A DNA stretch of 20,000 bases, taken from the IMG/VR virus record IMGVR_UViG_3300047673_000475; one strand, 5' to 3'. This DNA is from an uncultured virus (IMG/VR IMGVR_UViG_3300047673_000475). Its lineage: Duplodnaviria; Heunggongvirae; Uroviricota; Caudoviricetes. Every line of letters begins with the position of its first letter. Position 1 is the first letter of the stretch. Below are positions 13,399-20,000 of this stretch, piece by piece. A program made the position numbers and the translations under genes. Under the pieces are notes generated by a model, which had not been told where the DNA came from, ran no database searches, and worked only from the letters and a program-made list of their open reading frames with translations.

Positions 13399-13425
13399 GT
13401 GCCCGTTTCACCACGGGCATTTTTT
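13399..13425 (+). terminator. Rho-independent terminator
   Basis: GTGCCCGT-TTCACC-ACGGGCAT followed by TTTTT. Confidence 0.8.
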
Positions 13426-13483
13426 ACGAGCACATCCCCTACTATGTAGGAGTGCTTCAATTTGAAAAAACTAGGAAAGAAAC

Positions 13484-14488
13484 ATGTCCGAAATCATCGA
13501 GAAAGTCAAAGGTCGTATCAGCATCTACGCAGCGGGCGGAGCTGGCACGAACATTGCGACGCGCTTCGAGAAGTACCGCGGTAAAGCACAAGCTGGCATG
13601 GCTGTCGTCGAGCCGACGTATATCGACACCAGCAAGTCGAACATGCTCAACGCGAACATCGATGCGAACGCGATCTACCACTTCCAGGGCCTCGACGGTT
13701 CTGGACAAGTGCGCCGCGAACATGCCGCTGTCGTGAAGGAACGCGTCAAGGAAATCCTGCACGCGCACAAGCCGGGTAACCTGGCACTGGTGTTGCATTC
13801 GGCGTCGGGTGGTTCGGGTTCGGTGATCGGCCCGATTCTTACGCAAGAGCTGCTCGCACGTGACGTGCCGGTGGTGGTGGTCATGGTGGGCGATGCCTCG
13901 ACCCGGCTGTACGCGGAGAACACGCTCAACACGATCAAGTCCTACGAAGCCATCGCCAAGGCCGCGGGCGCCCCGATCGTCATCGCCTATCTGCAGAACA
14001 CGCAAGACACCCCGCGCGCTGCGGTGGACGCTGAAATCGAAACCGTCGTGGTCGGCCTCGCTGCGCTCTTTAGCCGCGAGAACACCGAGCTCGATACACG
14101 TGACCTCTACAACTGGTTGCGCTTCGACAAGGTCACCACCTTCAAGCAGCCGATGCTCGCAGGCCTGCACATCGTCAAGAACGGCGAATCGCACGCTCAC
14201 GTGGGCAATGTCATCAGCGTTGCGACGCTGGCGAAAGCGGGCGCTGATGCGACGCTACCGTTCATGCCCGAAGTGCGCTTTCTCGGACTGTTCCCGGCCG
14301 ACATGCCCGAGAACATCGCCAAGGAATCGCCGGTGCATTACATCACGGGCGACCGGGTGATCCACGAAGCCGTGGCCAACGTGCAAAAGGTGCTCTCGCA
14401 CCTGAGCGAGGAACAGCAGTCGCGCGTCGCGCACAAGTCCATTCTGGGCGCAGGCGACCGTGCGGATGAAACGGGGCTGATCCTCTAA
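13484..14488 (+). CDS. phuZ: Phage tubulin PhuZ (tubulin/FtsZ-family GTPase), 334 aa
   Basis: AAGGAGTNIA (T1 loop), YIDTSKSN, GLDGSGQVRRE, SASGGSGSVIGP (tubulin signature), ELDTRDLYNW (T7-like loop), and a short acidic-hydrophobic tail ADETGLIL typical of PhuZ. AGGA SD. Confidence 0.93.
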   Translation: MSEIIEKVKGRISIYAAGGAGTNIATRFEKYRGKAQAGMAVVEPTYIDTSKSNMLNANIDANAIYHFQGLDGSGQVRREHAAVVKERVKEILHAHKPGNLALVLHSASGGSGSVIGPILTQELLARDVPVVVVMVGDASTRLYAENTLNTIKSYEAIAKAAGAPIVIAYLQNTQDTPRAAVDAEIETVVVGLAALFSRENTELDTRDLYNWLRFDKVTTFKQPMLAGLHIVKNGESHAHVGNVISVATLAKAGADATLPFMPEVRFLGLFPADMPENIAKESPVHYITGDRVIHEAVANVQKVLSHLSEEQQSRVAHKSILGAGDRADETGLIL

Positions 14489-14524
14489 CAACAACGCTGG
14501 ACGACACGATAAGGAAAGCAATAA

Positions 14525-15170
14525 GAACCGATGTTTAGCCAGATCAGCTCTCTGGCCCGGTGGTGGTGGTCTGACTTTGGACGGTTTATCTATCACGATT
14601 TTTCGTGGTTCCCGTCCATTCAGGCCGCCGCCACTCGTAAAGTTCATCGGTCCTCACCCTTGCAGGCGCATGCGAGGGTGAATAGACATCATGCGCGACG
14701 TCCCCAGCTGGGGAAGGCAACGCGAGCTAAGGGTGCTCGTAGTACCTTCAGCCATTGAGGCGATGCGCTTGGCCCGTTGACTCGGACCGATGATTTGGCC
14801 ATGCGCAGACTTTAGTCCCATTCCAGCCGAACCGCGCATCAGGCGCAGGGGGTGCATCGGGGGCTAGGGTCTTTTACATTCCGTGAGTAATGGCCTGCCG
14901 CCTACTGGTGCGCAGGAGGCAATAAGTGCGACAGTTTTCAAGGGAGTACCCGAAGCAATTGTTTAGAGGTCCATGGACTGTCTAAAAATTAGCACTAGGG
15001 CCTAACACTTGGCTCGCAGCTTGAGATGTCCAGACCGCCTCAGTTCCGACCGCAACAATACCACAGTCCGTTTTACGGGTAGCTGTTTGGGTGAGCATCG
15101 GACGAGGCGAGTCCCTTTTATGCCTTCCTACGGGAGGGTGCAAAAGGGACTGATTATTTTTTTATGCCGC
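14525..15170 (+). ncRNA. Candidate large structured non-coding RNA 1 (family unknown)
   Basis: Nested stems found by eye: 14527-33/14645-51, 14560-74/14620-34 (15 bp, 3 G-U), 14578-84/14612-18, 14654-64/14671-81, 14685-90/15025-30, 14762-68/14834-40, 15036-41/15104-09, 15110-19/15142-51. No convincing CDS. Confidence 0.6.
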
Positions 15171-15228
15171 AGTTACACAAATAGTCAAAACAAACGTAGC
15201 CGCTGGATACTGTGTATAAGGAGCCGCC

Positions 15229-15636
15229 ATGAACCTCTTAACCGTCGAACCTAGGGCGCTATTGATCCAGGAGATCCATGACTTCCTGAGCGTCTTAAAG
15301 GGCGCTACGAGGGCAGTTGCGAGTCAACTGATCTTCTCCGGGTTGACTGAAGAGCGCTTAATCGAATGGATCGTCAAAGAACAGATTGAGCAGGTGTATC
15401 ATTTGTTCTCGGTGAACCACGACCCGCAGGACTGGCGCTTTGCCCGACTGCATGCCCAGATCCGCTCCGAGTTGGACCTGGATTACTACACCGGCCAATA
15501 CATCAAGGTGCCGCAGCTGTACGGCGACAACTGCTTCATCGACTTAGAAATCCGCGGGATTGACTTGTACATGTGGTACTACGTGCACAATCGCCCTGCC
15601 AATACGAACTACGACTACCAAAGAAAATGGAACTGA
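15229..15636 (+). CDS. Hypothetical protein, array member A (135 aa)
   Basis: TAAGGAG SD; overlaps the next gene. Confidence 0.8.
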   Translation: MNLLTVEPRALLIQEIHDFLSVLKGATRAVASQLIFSGLTEERLIEWIVKEQIEQVYHLFSVNHDPQDWRFARLHAQIRSELDLDYYTGQYIKVPQLYGDNCFIDLEIRGIDLYMWYYVHNRPANTNYDYQRKWN

Positions 15637-16436
15637 AAATCACTGGAACGCTGGTGCTGGATCTGGGAGACTGGGTCGACGCGGTGGAAGCTGCCGCAGG
15701 TCCCTACATGTTGCCCAATCCGGAAGGCTTGTACCTGCCGACTCAGTGTGAGCCGGTGATGGTCGCGGGACAGCCGTATTTCTACGCAGGTGAAGCGGTC
15801 AACAATGTCGCCACACCGATCCCGATTACGTCTTTCGAGTTGCCGTTGCGCGACGAAGTCTACGATGCGAAAGCCGATCTGGTCGTACCCAAGGTGCATC
15901 TGCCGTATCTGAAGCCGCAGTCACGCTTTTCACTGCGCGCACGCAATTTGCTCATCGAGCTGATTGACCACATGGTGATCAACCATGCGAAGTGGTCCAG
16001 CCAAGGCCGGATTCGTCGCGGCCACAAGAAGCTGAATTTCGACGCGGTGATCCGTCCGTTTCTTTTCGAGCAGTTCCAGCGCTCGGGCATCACGGTCGAT
16101 TCGGTGTTCCAGTATCCGAAAGATCCGAATGACGCCAATTTTAGCTGGGGGGAAACCGGCAACATCGTCGCCGTGGAGCATGAACCCACGGATGACCTGG
16201 GCCGCGCGCGCATCTCGGAACAGGACAAGCAACTTTTTTACGCGTCGCAGGAGATCTGTGAGAGCATCACGCTGCAATTGAGCGACATGCTACATCAGTT
16301 GACAGACTTCTTGGGACAAGATCGCTGGATCATGCACTTCATGAAAGTGGATAACACGGTGGTGCGGGTGGAAAAGACCATCGACTATCGGATCTATTCG
16401 TGGATGATGGAGCACGGCCGCGATTTTGAAGATTAA
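15627..16436 (+). CDS. Hypothetical protein, array member B (269 aa)
   Basis: ATG at 15627 (MELKITG...) overlaps the end of A; C-terminal EKTIDYRIYSW. Confidence 0.8.
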   Translation: MELKITGTLVLDLGDWVDAVEAAAGPYMLPNPEGLYLPTQCEPVMVAGQPYFYAGEAVNNVATPIPITSFELPLRDEVYDAKADLVVPKVHLPYLKPQSRFSLRARNLLIELIDHMVINHAKWSSQGRIRRGHKKLNFDAVIRPFLFEQFQRSGITVDSVFQYPKDPNDANFSWGETGNIVAVEHEPTDDLGRARISEQDKQLFYASQEICESITLQLSDMLHQLTDFLGQDRWIMHFMKVDNTVVRVEKTIDYRIYSWMMEHGRDFED

Positions 16437-16463
16437 CAGAGCGCGTGGCGGGGATGAGTAGAG

Positions 16464-16931
16464 ATGAAAAGCAGTACGGTGATTTCGCTGCTGGATGTGG
16501 GCATGTTCGTGCAACGCGAGCTGGCTCTGTATCAAGCACGCAAGCGTAACCCACGCAATCCGGAAGCCGCACTTGATCCGAACTGGAGAAGCTACGACAG
16601 TGGCCCGCTCCTGGAAGCCTTGCTCAAGGACGTGTTTGACAACACGTGTGAGGCGCATCCTTCCGAATACCTGGTCGCGGCCAAAGCCCTGTTGCAGAAT
16701 TCGGGCATGAATCATAATGCCGCGCACCAGTTATGCAACCGTGCGTTTGACATGATCGTCGATTACATCGGCGCGGTGTTGCCGCACCTGAAAATAAACG
16801 ATACGTCGACCCAGGCGTACGCTGATCTTACGGGCTCGTGGGATGTGGTGGTGACGGAATTCCCGAACTACATGGACACGATTGAACGCCTCCCGATGGA
16901 AGATCTCATCAACGCGCCCGTACGACTATAA
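16464..16931 (+). CDS. Hypothetical protein, array member C (155 aa)
   Basis: Packed in the operon; purine-rich SD-like leader. Confidence 0.75.
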   Translation: MKSSTVISLLDVGMFVQRELALYQARKRNPRNPEAALDPNWRSYDSGPLLEALLKDVFDNTCEAHPSEYLVAAKALLQNSGMNHNAAHQLCNRAFDMIVDYIGAVLPHLKINDTSTQAYADLTGSWDVVVTEFPNYMDTIERLPMEDLINAPVRL

Positions 16932-16969
16932 GTAACAGGTCATTACAATCGAAACAAGGAATAGCAACC

Positions 16970-17455
16970 ATGTCCGTTTTCATATTGCCGACGTGTGATC
17001 TGATCACGGAATCCATGGTGTACGATGAGTTGTTCAAGCTCTTTCTGAAGGGCGGTGTGCATTCCGTCGTGAAGAATGCAGTCTTGGGTACGTCGTTTCA
17101 GGAAACCTCGCCGTACACTGAGTACCAGCGCTCGCTGCAGCATCACCACAGTGAGTTGGTGGATTTCGTGTTGAAGAAGTTTGACAGTTACGTTAACCGG
17201 CGTCATGAACAGTTCGATGAGCGTACGGGCCGTATCAAACATACGTCCGTGGACTTAAGCGAATACATGAGCCGGGTGGGTGAGCTGGAGATGATCACGC
17301 AATCCATTGAAGAGCAAGTATTGCTCATCATGCAAGATCTCTTTAGCACTCGACCTTACCAGATCGATGACCAAAGTCCGCGCTGGATCGGTCGAGATCT
17401 GGTGGTGGGTATCGAGGTCCTCACCAACAATTGGGGAAAACGCCGTGTATACTGA
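16970..17455 (+). CDS. Hypothetical protein, array member D (161 aa)
   Basis: AAGGA SD, ATG. Confidence 0.8.
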   Translation: MSVFILPTCDLITESMVYDELFKLFLKGGVHSVVKNAVLGTSFQETSPYTEYQRSLQHHHSELVDFVLKKFDSYVNRRHEQFDERTGRIKHTSVDLSEYMSRVGELEMITQSIEEQVLLIMQDLFSTRPYQIDDQSPRWIGRDLVVGIEVLTNNWGKRRVY

Positions 17456-17900
17456 AAACCTATTGATCGACTTCACGCAAGAGATCCATGGGTTTCTGCG
17501 CGTGGCGACCCAGCCTTTTCGTCCGCCCTTTGATTTGAGCGAAGTGCTGGCGAGCGTGTTTGGCGCAATTAGCGTGTATGATTGTGCAGAGTCTGAGCTC
17601 ACGGAAGTGGCGATCGTACTGGCATACGACTGCGGCTACCAGGAGTTCCGCATCGAGGAAGCCGATATTCCCCGTGGTCCTCATCGCGATATGTTTGAAG
17701 CCGTGATGAAGATGGGACTCGCCATGCGAGATCGGTTGCGCTTTGAGTACAACGCTTATCTGCCGCCTGACGGCTATTTTCCCTATCTTTTTGCGGAGGT
17801 CCACAGTGACCATCTTGTCCGGTTTGCCAAGGCCGATTTTGAGGAGTTCGGTCAACCGCCAGCCTCCTTCGACCTTTTTGGTTCTGGATACCGACTCTGA
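17445..17900 (+). CDS. Hypothetical protein, array member E (151 aa, GTG start)
   Basis: GGGGA SD; GTG at 17445 overlaps the end of D. Confidence 0.75.
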   Translation: MYTENLLIDFTQEIHGFLRVATQPFRPPFDLSEVLASVFGAISVYDCAESELTEVAIVLAYDCGYQEFRIEEADIPRGPHRDMFEAVMKMGLAMRDRLRFEYNAYLPPDGYFPYLFAEVHSDHLVRFAKADFEEFGQPPASFDLFGSGYRL

Positions 17901-18282
17901 GTTGGCCACGCTGCTGTGGAAAGCTCGAGATCTGGAGTCATTGATTCCGGATACGCCCGTCATGCTGGTGGATAAGTTTCCCCACACGGTGATGGACATG
18001 GTCGCCCAGATCGTGATGGAGTCGATCCACTACGAGCGCACAGCCCGTGATGAGTTGAACTTCGCCTGTGCCGAGATGTTCCTGAATGAATTGGGTTCCT
18101 CGTGCGAGGACTCGTATCGGCGTTTTGCCGGGCTCTTGAATCGCTTTGGCGAAGAGGTGCTCGAGAAGCTGCGCATGATGCGGGCCTACCAGAACGGTTA
18201 CCTGTATTATCAGTTCCACGACTGGCTCGGTCGTGACATGGTGCTGCGACACCTGCATGCTGAGCACATCCCTAACCTGTGA
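17878..18282 (+). CDS. Hypothetical protein, array member F (~134 aa; start uncertain)
   Basis: Open frame overlapping the end of E, with TTG at 17878 or 17902. Clear similarity to the C-termini of E and G. Confidence 0.7.
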   Translation: MVLDTDSELATLLWKARDLESLIPDTPVMLVDKFPHTVMDMVAQIVMESIHYERTARDELNFACAEMFLNELGSSCEDSYRRFAGLLNRFGEEVLEKLRMMRAYQNGYLYYQFHDWLGRDMVLRHLHAEHIPNL

Positions 18283-18289
18283 ATTGACT

Positions 18290-18691
18290 ATGGCAAACGA
18301 GCATTACAGCAGACTCATGATCGTTGAGACGGCGGATCTCTGGGCGCAGTTTCTGTTTGAAGTGCAAGGTTTGCCTATTCACTTCAACGATAAGCGCGAA
18401 ATCATCACGCAGATCTTCGAAGTGTTTTTGGACTATTCAGCAAACGGTCCTGCCCGACTCGAGGCGCTGCCCATTACCAATCGTATAGTAGACCCGGTTT
18501 ATGAAAACACGGCGTCTAGCGAGTATCAGCGATTGCGGGCAGCGGTTCAAAATCTGGCACAGAGTGTGTACGCGCGTCTCGAGGGATTGCGTGGACTACG
18601 TACAGGAGCGGCCGGTAGCGGCTACGGCTTCCCGTACTACGTCCACCAGTTTCTCGGTGACGACGTGATTTTGGATCACCTGCCCTTCTGA
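18290..18691 (+). CDS. Hypothetical protein, array member G (133 aa)
   Basis: ATG at 18290, 7 nt after the stop of F. Confidence 0.75.
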   Translation: MANEHYSRLMIVETADLWAQFLFEVQGLPIHFNDKREIITQIFEVFLDYSANGPARLEALPITNRIVDPVYENTASSEYQRLRAAVQNLAQSVYARLEGLRGLRTGAAGSGYGFPYYVHQFLGDDVILDHLPF

Positions 18692-18725
18692 TCTTTTTTT
18701 TTTGTTCATTTGGGCACGGGAAACC

Positions 18726-19127
18726 ATGGCTTACAATTTTGCTATCGGGCAGACGTACTCGTTTAACGTCTATCCGCCTCTGCTGGGCAGCGACTGGCAG
18801 AACGTCAAGGTCACCTCGGTGATGTCGTACGAAGACGCGATGAAGGACGAAGACATGACGTCCTTGCACGTGCAGTTCTATCCGTTCTTCGGTCCGCAGA
18901 CCCACACGCCGAACGATCCGGCCGCGTACCTGTACATCAAGGTCAAGACGCAAAACGGCAACACCCAAATTCTGGGTGTGGCATGGATTGACGACTCGTC
19001 CGTGACGCTCGTCACAGCGCAGACCATCACGGCGACCATCGCCCAGGTGACCCCGCAGGACATTCCGAAGGTTCAGGCTATTTTGGCCGCCAACGGTTAC
19101 AACTTCGTTACGGTAGCGATCAAGTAA
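18726..19127 (+). CDS. Conserved jumbo-phage beta-rich protein (probably phiKZ gp49-like), 133 aa
   Basis: ATG at 18726 (MAYNFAIGQTYSFNVYPPLLG...ILGVAWIDDSSV) with a GGGA SD and strong codon bias. Its position before the polymerase matches my recollection of phiKZ-family synteny. Confidence 0.65.
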   Translation: MAYNFAIGQTYSFNVYPPLLGSDWQNVKVTSVMSYEDAMKDEDMTSLHVQFYPFFGPQTHTPNDPAAYLYIKVKTQNGNTQILGVAWIDDSSVTLVTAQTITATIAQVTPQDIPKVQAILAANGYNFVTVAIK

Positions 19128-19219
19128 ACGTGGGTTTACCCTAGTTAATTTATATCGCCCATCCGTAATGTTCTGAAGAGAAAGGCCCGGCAAGCCTGTA
19201 CCCTCATCGACAGCAGACC

Positions 19220-19640
19220 TCCTCCTGACTGGTGCCGATAAGGACTCTCGCGCGAGCCCTCCCGCGGGCTACCGCGCCGTATGCCTAGACGCGGGGCTGG
19301 CTTATTCACGCTGCTGGGGTTTCCTCCTTGTTTCCCCTGGCACCAGCGTTTCCTCGTACATCGATCCTACTCCTATCGCTGCTCTGCGCCTCCGCAAGCG
19401 CTCTTTGGCGAATATAGGAGTCTCCTGTGGAAGTTGGTCGATCGCGTGGATTAAGAGTAAGCTGGCCCCTGTCTATCTCGATTTTGGTTGAAGTGGTAGT
19501 GGTAGTAGAGTCTCTGTGGCTCCGAATTGATCGGGCATGTTCAGTGACTGGTTTTCCTTTTCGGTACTTGTAACGACCTGTATTTAGGCGAGGTGGCGGC
19601 CCGAAACCGCTCCTCGCCCTTTTTTCCTTTTTATGCCGCT
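19220..19640 (+). ncRNA. Candidate structured non-coding RNA 2 (family unknown)
   Basis: Nested stems: 19243-48/19507-12, 19268-75/19493-500, 19286-90/19471-75, 19293-307/19455-69 (15 bp, 3 G-U), 19308-13/19344-49, 19369-76/19414-21. Ends in a terminator-like hairpin 19587-19618, a U tract and TATGCCG. The ORF track shows no ORF inside it. Confidence 0.6.
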
Positions 19641-19694
19641 GATTCGTTTTTATTGGGCTCCTTGATCATGTAGGTCGACAAGGAGTAAAACAAA

Positions 19695-20000
19695 GTGTCA
19701 GAAGCGAACAACCCATTTGTACTGGCGCCTTCCCAGTACAAGCGCGATCTAAACGTCCTCGGCTATTATGTCCAGGACTGCGCGACCTATTTGCATCAAA
19801 TGACGGGGGCACCGATCGAGGACTGCACGACCTTTGTGAAAACGGAGATGCGTCCCGGCGGACAGTTTGAATTCAAGGACCCGAAGATCGTCTACCTCGA
19901 GCGTCAGGACAACGGTGACCGGGTCCAGATGGAAGGCACGCTGCAGGCCTACCTGAATGATTCGATCCGTAACAAAGAACTGATTGCGCCGACGCTCACC
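19695..20000 (+). CDS. N-terminus of a probable phiKZ gp50-like DNA polymerase subunit (truncated by the window edge)
   Basis: AAGGAG SD, GTG at 19695, open to the end: MSEANNPFVLAPSQYKRDLNVLGYYVQDCATYL...ERQDNGDR...LIAPTLT. The NPF...YKRDL start and synteny recall this family; no catalytic motif lies within the window. Confidence 0.6.
   Translation, partial: MSEANNPFVLAPSQYKRDLNVLGYYVQDCATYLHQMTGAPIEDCTTFVKTEMRPGGQFEFKDPKIVYLERQDNGDRVQMEGTLQAYLNDSIRNKELIAPTLT

Follow-up and report, generated by a model that had tools for sequence, protein, structure and literature searches.

A conserved structured RNA predicted beside the DNA polymerase gene of a nucleus-forming jumbo phage carries loops complementary to the phage's commonest leader motif

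Between a homologue of phiKZ gp49 and the DNA polymerase gene, the DNA analysed here (the window, a stretch of 20,000 nucleotides forming the end of a 71.9-kb virus contig) contains a gap, which raises the question of what this gap encodes. The window also encodes the PhuZ tubulin, at 13484, and the phiKZ gp50-type DNA polymerase begins at 19695. The genes bordering the gap are as follows.

18726..19127, + strand: gene 5′ of the gap, phiKZ gp49 homologue (phrog_3235), aligning with a PhiPA3 gene annotated as phiKZ gp049-like
19695..20000, + strand: start of the DNA polymerase gene (phrog_2927, phiKZ gp50 homologue), extending beyond the window

The gene for the gp49 homologue marks the locus in all relatives. 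The nearest named phage is Burkholderia phage FLC9 (70% over 18700–20000), and the gap before the polymerase is kept in FLC9 and in IMG/VR contigs at 68–100% identity. The complete relative G001 is 100% identical over the gap and carries the gene for the nuclear shell protein; the virus is a nucleus-forming jumbo phage, which we take, from its gene set, to belong to the Chimalliviridae. Elsewhere, the window holds a free-standing HNH endonuclease gene (phrog_59; 2142–2960, − strand), and in G001 (296600–302900) and FLC9 (316750–320644) a run of small genes lies between the polymerase region and the chimallin gene, most relatives being different there.

A first-pass annotation of the letters had proposed a structured RNA with a long nested architecture at 19130–19640, either an independent non-coding RNA or an attenuator-type leader, and had noted no likeness to another candidate, ncRNA 1. 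The latter (14489–15228), which fills a long gap after PhuZ, is 75% identical in FLC9 and 70–89% identical in IMG/VR relatives and has no Rfam match; just chance matches of 12–16 nt connect the two elements, in agreement with the annotation. All 14 quoted motifs are present where they had been placed (GACTCT at 19243 with AGAGTC at 19507; GCTACCGC at 19268 with GTGGTAGT at 19493; TAGAC at 19286 with GTCTA at 19471; a 15-bp helix at 19293–19307 and 19455–19469; arms at 19308/19344, 19361/19436 and 19369/19414), and the base skew is also as described, with C at 0.37 in the 5′ half and G at 0.31 in the 3′ half. The proposed interval held up in part. The fold of its core, 19284–19476, was better than those of 100 of 100 shuffled sequences (z −5.3, with boundaries chosen after the helix was seen), but that of the whole of 19130–19640 was marginal (z −1.55, matched by 7 of 100 shuffles; z −1.85 in a second run). 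The minus strand of the whole interval gave a z of −2.0. The elements of the predicted RNA are listed here.

19170..19632, + strand: predicted non-coding RNA of about 455–460 nt, from conservation and covariation, both ends predicted
19183..19197, + strand: 5′ hairpin, one pair with both sides changed
19250..19277, + strand: hairpin with invariant GCGCG/CGCGC and a covarying upper stem in the alignment of relatives
19286..19475, + strand: core domain, formed by TAGAC/GTCTA and the 15-bp helix (19293–19307 / 19455–19469) with two arms; covariation, also in the distant locus L056
19361..19441, + strand: second arm, with covarying stems, carrying loop C (CTCCGCAA, 19390–19397)

Two of the checks that the annotation had suggested, covariation in related phages and a search of Rfam, were carried out. 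In a MAFFT alignment of eight related sequences, with the structure taken from the window, 94.6% of 536 cells were paired and 17 of 67 pairs had changed on both sides, counts that are inflated, since the eight rows represent some five sequence types from two subclades and include the very sequence that supplied the structure. None of 500 shuffles reached the observed pairing, and slid controls gave 39–48%. Every cell of the 15-bp helix and of TAGAC/GTCTA was paired in all eight relatives, and the distant locus L056 retains the 15-bp helix with different letters. The nested architecture was therefore borne out for the inner helices, which are conserved in eight sequences, but less so towards the outside: GACTCT/AGAGTC holds in only three of the eight rows (the window and two 98% relatives), and GCTACCGC/GTGGTAGT, partly broken in four of eight, competes with the invariant GCGCG/CGCGC helix. 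At the columns of ACGCTG/CAGCGT the pairing holds in four of eight rows; the other four, folded singly, form a stem with other letters. Across five sequences, the four core helices contained 139 Watson–Crick, 16 G-U and 0 A-C cells, and the presence of G-U cells with zero A-C cells indicates that the RNA lies on the + strand.

Rfam holds families for RNAIII, 6C, GcvB, GOLLD, ROOL, OLE, tmRNA, RNase P, SRP, introns and riboswitches. A search with Rfam 15 at gathering thresholds yielded no match over the 20 kb, and at E values up to 10 the segment 19050–19750 yielded one chance match (PVT1_3, E 8.6), so that no family matched at either threshold. A covariance model, R1, was built from six sequences and run over 31 sources. 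Apart from the two training sequences present there, it gave one weak match, at E 0.012 in L077's syntenic gap, and three that lay outside the core; it did not find the RNA in FLC6 or phiKZ. Nor did it find the RP12-type RNAs among these sources, so that common descent of all syntenic RNAs is conjectural. No second copy of the RNA was found elsewhere in the genome.

Signals compatible with a discrete transcript flank the structure.

19141..19175, + strand: predicted middle-type promoter in conserved columns, comprising an A/T-rich run, TATC (19153–19156), TAATG (19166–19170) and TCTG (19172–19175)
19587..19632, + strand: terminator-like hairpin (19587–19618) followed by a U-tract; stem letters differ among relatives and the hairpin is kept

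TATC lies 22 nt 5′ of the G in TCTG (19175), which is the spacing of the phiKZ middle promoter motif described in PMC8244752, and the transcription start is accordingly predicted at 19170–19176. A middle-class phiKZ start, P023, ends in TAATG and is located between gp49 and gp50; terminator T022 is mapped 61 nt downstream of it, with read-through into the PHIKZ050 polymerase gene (as reported in PMC10914365). A sigma-70 promoter scan returned 0 sites, and a simple terminator scan left the + strand hairpin at 19587–19618 uncalled and returned one minus-strand site, which is chance level. A TTTATGCCG-like motif follows terminator-like hairpins at 19628–19638 and in many relatives; it includes TATG and may also act as a promoter. 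From each of three rhizosphere RNA runs came one contig of 150–151 nt at 19207–19370, with two other letters and a depth of 2–3.9, and one of them also yielded a contig on ncRNA 1, whereas no contig from these runs, over 13400–20000, lay on the genes adjoining the element. The runs, each with a share of 0.05–0.06, were picked using 18700–20000, may belong to one campaign and may represent DNA, and their contigs are without ends or strand; they are at most a weak hint of transcription. Taken together, the conservation, the compensatory changes, the asymmetry between strands and the signals on either side give good support to the independent structured non-coding RNA of the first-pass annotation.

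We compared 51 loci, many of them duplicates, in 50 of which both flanking genes were present. Gaps of 370–580 nt with no + strand ORF of 60 aa were found in the group of the window and in L051, L055, L056, L058, L059, L060, L063, L070 and L080, and short gaps of 97–205 nt in L062, L065, FLC6, PhiPA3, PhiEaH1, Xoo-sp14 and pEa_SNUABM_54. In RP12, FLC1-1B, L052, L054, L067 and L069, further genes intervene before the polymerase, with a gap of about 430 nt alongside where examined. Long gaps near the polymerase in PhiEaH1, Xoo-sp14 and pEa_SNUABM_54 were rejected, since by eye they resembled unannotated genes or unrelated elements. Short structured elements occur in the interval between the gp49 homologue and the polymerase in PhiPA3 (L023:7796-7979), phiKZ (L082:12442-12503), Xoo-sp14 (L025:7827-7991) and pEa_SNUABM_54 (L026:7833-8012); that of PhiPA3 has a G/U-rich segment pairing with the leader of the polymerase, which parallels the prediction for the window.

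The first-pass annotation had missed the central feature of the RNA, namely that its loops, which are predicted to be exposed, complement the ribosome-binding motif of the phage itself. Variation is lowest in the parts predicted to be single-stranded, i.e. loops A, B and C, all C/U-rich, and a 3′ segment.

19218..19225, + strand: loop A, CCTCCTCC, nearly invariant, predicted unpaired, resembling an anti-ribosome-site sequence
19316..19337, + strand: loop B hairpin with its loop at 19321–19334; the seed TCCTTGTTT (19325–19333) is the complement of AAACAAGGA
16952..16960, + strand: candidate target site AAACAAGGA before the gene at 16970–17455

Loop B is predicted to be unpaired and has one variable letter in eight rows. 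Leaders were analysed in ten phage records, with genes called by a simple codon model; a 9-mer was counted if it lay 3–22 nt upstream of any candidate start that was no more than 45 codons away from the best start, and the same rule was applied to every 9-mer. AAACAAGGA, the exact complement of the loop, was the top-ranked leader 9-mer in G001 (19 of 356 genes), FLC9 (28 of 357) and G006 (11 of 141). It is present in 24 copies in the G001 genome, against 2.9 expected, and in 34 copies in that of FLC9, and its GGA lies mostly 6–9 nt before the start, which is the spacing of a ribosome site. In the contig that contains the window, three copies on the + strand each precede a start, and one further copy is the loop itself. 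RP12 has another loop, whose complement, TAAAGGAAA, is its top leader 9-mer (10 of 258 genes), and the top 9-mer of G003, AAAGGAAAG (7 of 277 genes), is the exact complement of G003's own loop. The top 9-mer thus equals the exact loop complement in five of eight long-gap genomes, belonging to two groups; in G005, G004 and G007 it does not, but lineage-leaning 7-mers do match.

The motif swap is reciprocal. AAACAAGGA leaders number 0 in RP12 (0/258) and in G003, and TAAAGGAAA leaders number two in G001 and one in FLC9. FLC6, which shares the host of FLC9 and has a short gap, carries AAACAAGGA in one of 214 leaders and is without a dominant purine-rich motif; its leaders share TTTTAAAATG. In phiKZ, AAACAAGGA was found in none of 325 leaders. 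A loop-to-leader match was sought in the phiKZ 61-nt RNA and in the FLC6 gap and was not found. G003 has a second frequent leader motif, AAATCAGGA (six genes), which is without a complement in its gap RNA. As in base-pairing small RNAs, a conserved structure leaves a C/U-rich loop unpaired, and this loop complements several ribosome sites.

We then considered which genes are matched. Candidate target genes, chosen by relaxed motifs and named via PHROGs, numbered 30 in G001 and 13 in RP12. In G001 they include chimallin, three RNA polymerase subunits, the polymerase (weakly), a dCTP deaminase, a transposase-like protein and one doubtful virion protein, and in RP12 chimallin, PhuZ, two RNA polymerase subunits, an ATPase-like protein and an endolysin-family protein; the remaining matched genes of both are mostly without an assigned PHROGs function. 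For six orthologous leaders, assigning each lineage's RNA to its own leaders was the best of 120 permutations in three of three sets of five lineages, a comparison in which five starts had been hand-corrected, some with the motif in view (the third set contained none of them), the RNA spans had been set by eye, and G006 and G007 contributed five and four of the six genes, respectively. The longest perfect match to these six leaders was 8.1–8.8 nt for the own RNA and 6.8–7.1 nt for the other RNAs. The matrix of whole RNAs against all leaders was just partly diagonal: the RNA of the window matched 7.3% of its own leaders and 5.4–9.2% of those in RP12, G003, G005, G004 and G007, and that of RP12 matched G005 leaders (6.2%) better than its own (3.9%). 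In the PhuZ leader of the window (13455–13484), AAACTAGGA stands where FLC9 and G006 keep AAACAAGGA, and the match is down to 6 nt; judging from these letters, PhuZ seems to have been lost as a predicted target in the lineage of the window. An RNA polymerase subunit leader in G003 (start 101042, − strand) and the DNA polymerase leader in RP12 (start 3358, − strand) are without an AGGA/GGAG/GAGG core, and both have A/C-rich elements that complement the own RNA.

A second site is predicted in the 3′ part of the RNA.

19568..19582, + strand: 3′ single-stranded segment TTGTAACGACCTGTA, 14 of 15 letters and the first T invariant in eight rows; complements TTACAA / GTCGTTACAA elements and the polymerase leader
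19669..19685, + strand: polymerase leader TGTAGGTCGACAAGGAG, invariant in eight rows; complements the 3′ segment and, over 8 nt, loop B

The 3′ segment is predicted to form a 12-nt duplex with the gp71-73-type subunit's leader and one of 10 nt with the leader of the gp68 orthologue. In G001, TTACAA was found in 9 of 39 leaders with the motif and in 10 of 317 without it; the corresponding counts for FLC9 were 16 of 56 and 14 of 301. For RP12, where the G/U loop of the RNA matches TCACCA instead, this element was found in 9 of 17 motif leaders against 7 of 241 others; all these counts come from start choices that favoured motif-bearing starts. With an early or late class borrowed crudely from phiKZ (that of the orthologue's nearest classified start), early orthologues carried the motif more often than late ones in four of five genomes: 3/10 vs 1/33 in G001, 6/10 vs 2/27 in G006, 5/9 vs 0/34 in RP12 and 4/9 vs 0/37 in G003. 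In FLC9 the early bias was not significant (4/11 vs 5/36).

Considering these matches, we favour, with somewhat better than even confidence, a separately transcribed middle-phase antisense RNA that covers ribosome sites and represses the translation of early genes. Transcription would run from the middle-type promoter at 19170–19176 as far as the hairpin near 19630, occasionally continuing into the polymerase gene, and the RNA would be exported from the phage nucleus. Loop B would then pair over 9–13 nt with AAACAAGGA(G) in the leaders, the 3′ segment would pair with a TTACAA element slightly upstream in a subset of them, and the duplex would block ribosome entry at the matched leaders. Since the middle promoter would require the non-virion RNA polymerase, this arrangement could constitute negative feedback, in which that polymerase makes an RNA that damps the polymerase itself, the shell and other early proteins. 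The proposal starts from what was observed, namely the conserved structure, the + strand, the complementarity, the lineage match and the early-orthologue bias of the matched genes; every step past complementarity is one that we infer, and complementarity alone fits repression or activation. As described in PMC12571901, chimallin synthesis in phiKZ ceases when an 11-mer antisense oligomer is directed at the ribosome site of chmA, and such messages are therefore reachable. The repression reading sits awkwardly with the fact that phiKZ chimallin is also expressed from a middle promoter (reported in PMC8244752).

The same loop/leader matches would also serve if the RNA aided these leaders, as an adaptor able to bring in ribosomes, shield the messages or deliver them to the surface of the nucleus. 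The convergence of 19–28 genes on one 9-mer is unusually tight, the RNA is far bigger than a repressor requires, and the G/U-rich segments of the RNA match some essential genes without an AGGA/GGAG/GAGG core, such as the gp55-type subunit in G003 and the polymerase in RP12. However, about half of the called genes are without this core (by crude start calls), so that core-less leaders are not special; loop B covers the very core needed for ribosome pairing; FLC6 and phiKZ cope with a short gap; and an RNA from a middle-type promoter whose matched genes lean early would arrive after the need for an adaptor. We consider this role unlikely. Rather unlikely, too, is its extension to a private translation code evolved by a clade of nucleus-forming phages, in which each lineage's own extended leader motif would label shell, RNA polymerase and replication messages, and the RNA would be the reader, a phage-made stand-in for the anti-Shine–Dalgarno end of the ribosome that recruits ribosomes or ferries messages at the nucleus instead of silencing them. 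Activation, if true, would add a previously unseen means by which a virus gives preference to its own messages.

The attenuator-type leader of the first-pass annotation corresponds to a mainly cis-acting role, in which transcription would either terminate at the hairpin or read through, and the 3′ segment or loop B would fold back on the ribosome site of the polymerase. Part of this claim stands. A terminator-like hairpin with a U-tract does precede the gene; in phiKZ, according to PMC10914365, one start gives both a terminated 61-nt RNA and read-through into PHIKZ050; and the consensus fold pairs 19568–19582 with the invariant polymerase leader, the duplex energies being −11.6 and −14.6 kcal/mol. 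However, the pairs between the 3′ segment and the polymerase leader never vary and thus give no covariation evidence, and the lowest-energy read-through fold, computed on a single sequence, keeps the terminator. The claim also leaves unexplained the 19–28 matches to other, distant leaders, as well as the separation of RNA and polymerase by other genes in the RP12 type (whose homology to the RNA of the window is conjectural). A pure attenuator fits less well than the antisense RNA and is quite improbable, although that RNA may act in cis on the polymerase as well, in which case the two readings would not be alternatives.

The C/U-rich loops A, B and C, and the matches of the window's RNA to 5–9% of the leaders of other phages, would also be expected of generic anti-ribosome-site loops directed against host messages (host shut-off) or of sites for a pyrimidine-binding protein, the phage match being incidental. 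The match spans AAACAA beyond the usual core, it swaps among lineages with related hosts, and the second, non-core element swaps too, which makes these readings very improbable. Scarcely credible is a small protein gene (19281–19454, 57 aa), whose ORF is open in the window and, with another end, in L047 but is without a start or closed after five codons in FLC9 and L051 and lies in another frame in L048/L049, or a minus-strand RNA with GGA loops for a CsrA/RsmA-type protein, which AAACAAGGAGGAAA in a loop and a fold z of about −2 to −4 would suit but which the 16 G-U against 0 A-C cells and the + strand U-tract oppose. Sponges of the CsrB/RsmZ type carry GGA in their loops, and here the GGA loops occur only on the minus strand; both this candidate, from the G-U and A-C counts, and the small ORF, as not conserved, were rejected.

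The proposed antisense RNA would bear on how nucleus-forming phages time their genes post-transcriptionally. The role of non-coding RNAs in lytic phages is, per a review, still to be resolved (PMC10884466), and phiKZ candidate RNAs are reported without a known function in PMC10914365, whereas the present RNA comes with a predicted target list in which both the non-virion RNA polymerase and the shell appear. Nature has provided a compensatory experiment, in that two lineages whose hosts are related carry different loops and different leader motifs on orthologous genes. An early-to-middle switch by RNA thereby becomes directly testable with reporter swaps, and the element is present in the isolated phage FLC9. 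The RNA is not described in the open papers and preprints searched; the motif files of PMC10690425 (8,495 short viral motifs of 29–151 nt from IMG/VR) may hold a piece of it. The present analysis contributes the rank of the motif across whole genomes, its reciprocal swap together with a control from the same host, a second site that covaries and the bias towards early genes.

Among known systems, RNAIII has a length of about 500 nt. In Staphylococcus aureus it masks the Shine–Dalgarno sequence of several messages by pairing, with two contact regions per target (as outlined in PMC2837412), and the mycobacterial 6C sRNA uses C-rich loops on many targets (as outlined in PMC6486639). The RNA of the window resembles both in that its loops are predicted to pair over many ribosome sites. 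Unlike them, it is without an Rfam match, is a lytic-phage RNA aimed at the phage's own genes, and has as its target the genome's commonest leader 9-mer, which changes with the loop between lineages; moreover, repression has been demonstrated for RNAIII and is proposed here by inference. The enteric multi-target RNA GcvB pairs with A/C-rich enhancer elements just 5′ of the Shine–Dalgarno sequence, as described in PMC3879156. The G/U-rich second segment of the window's RNA is similarly predicted to act on TTACAA and TCACCAC elements, but there is no sequence or Rfam match to GcvB, and this second site is joined with a loop covering the core itself. The phiKZ 61-nt RNA in the PHIKZ050 5′ UTR shares the position, the TAATG start, the terminator before the polymerase and the read-through form, whereas it has one seventh of the length, was missed by the covariance model and has no enriched match in phiKZ leaders. 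Finally, among the synthetic antisense oligomers against phiKZ chmA and PHIKZ055 (PMC12571901), 11 nt of duplex on the chimallin ribosome site suffice to stop the shell being made, and loop B offers 10–13 nt on the equivalent leaders; these oligomers were added PNA of higher affinity, whereas that of the window would be a natural RNA.
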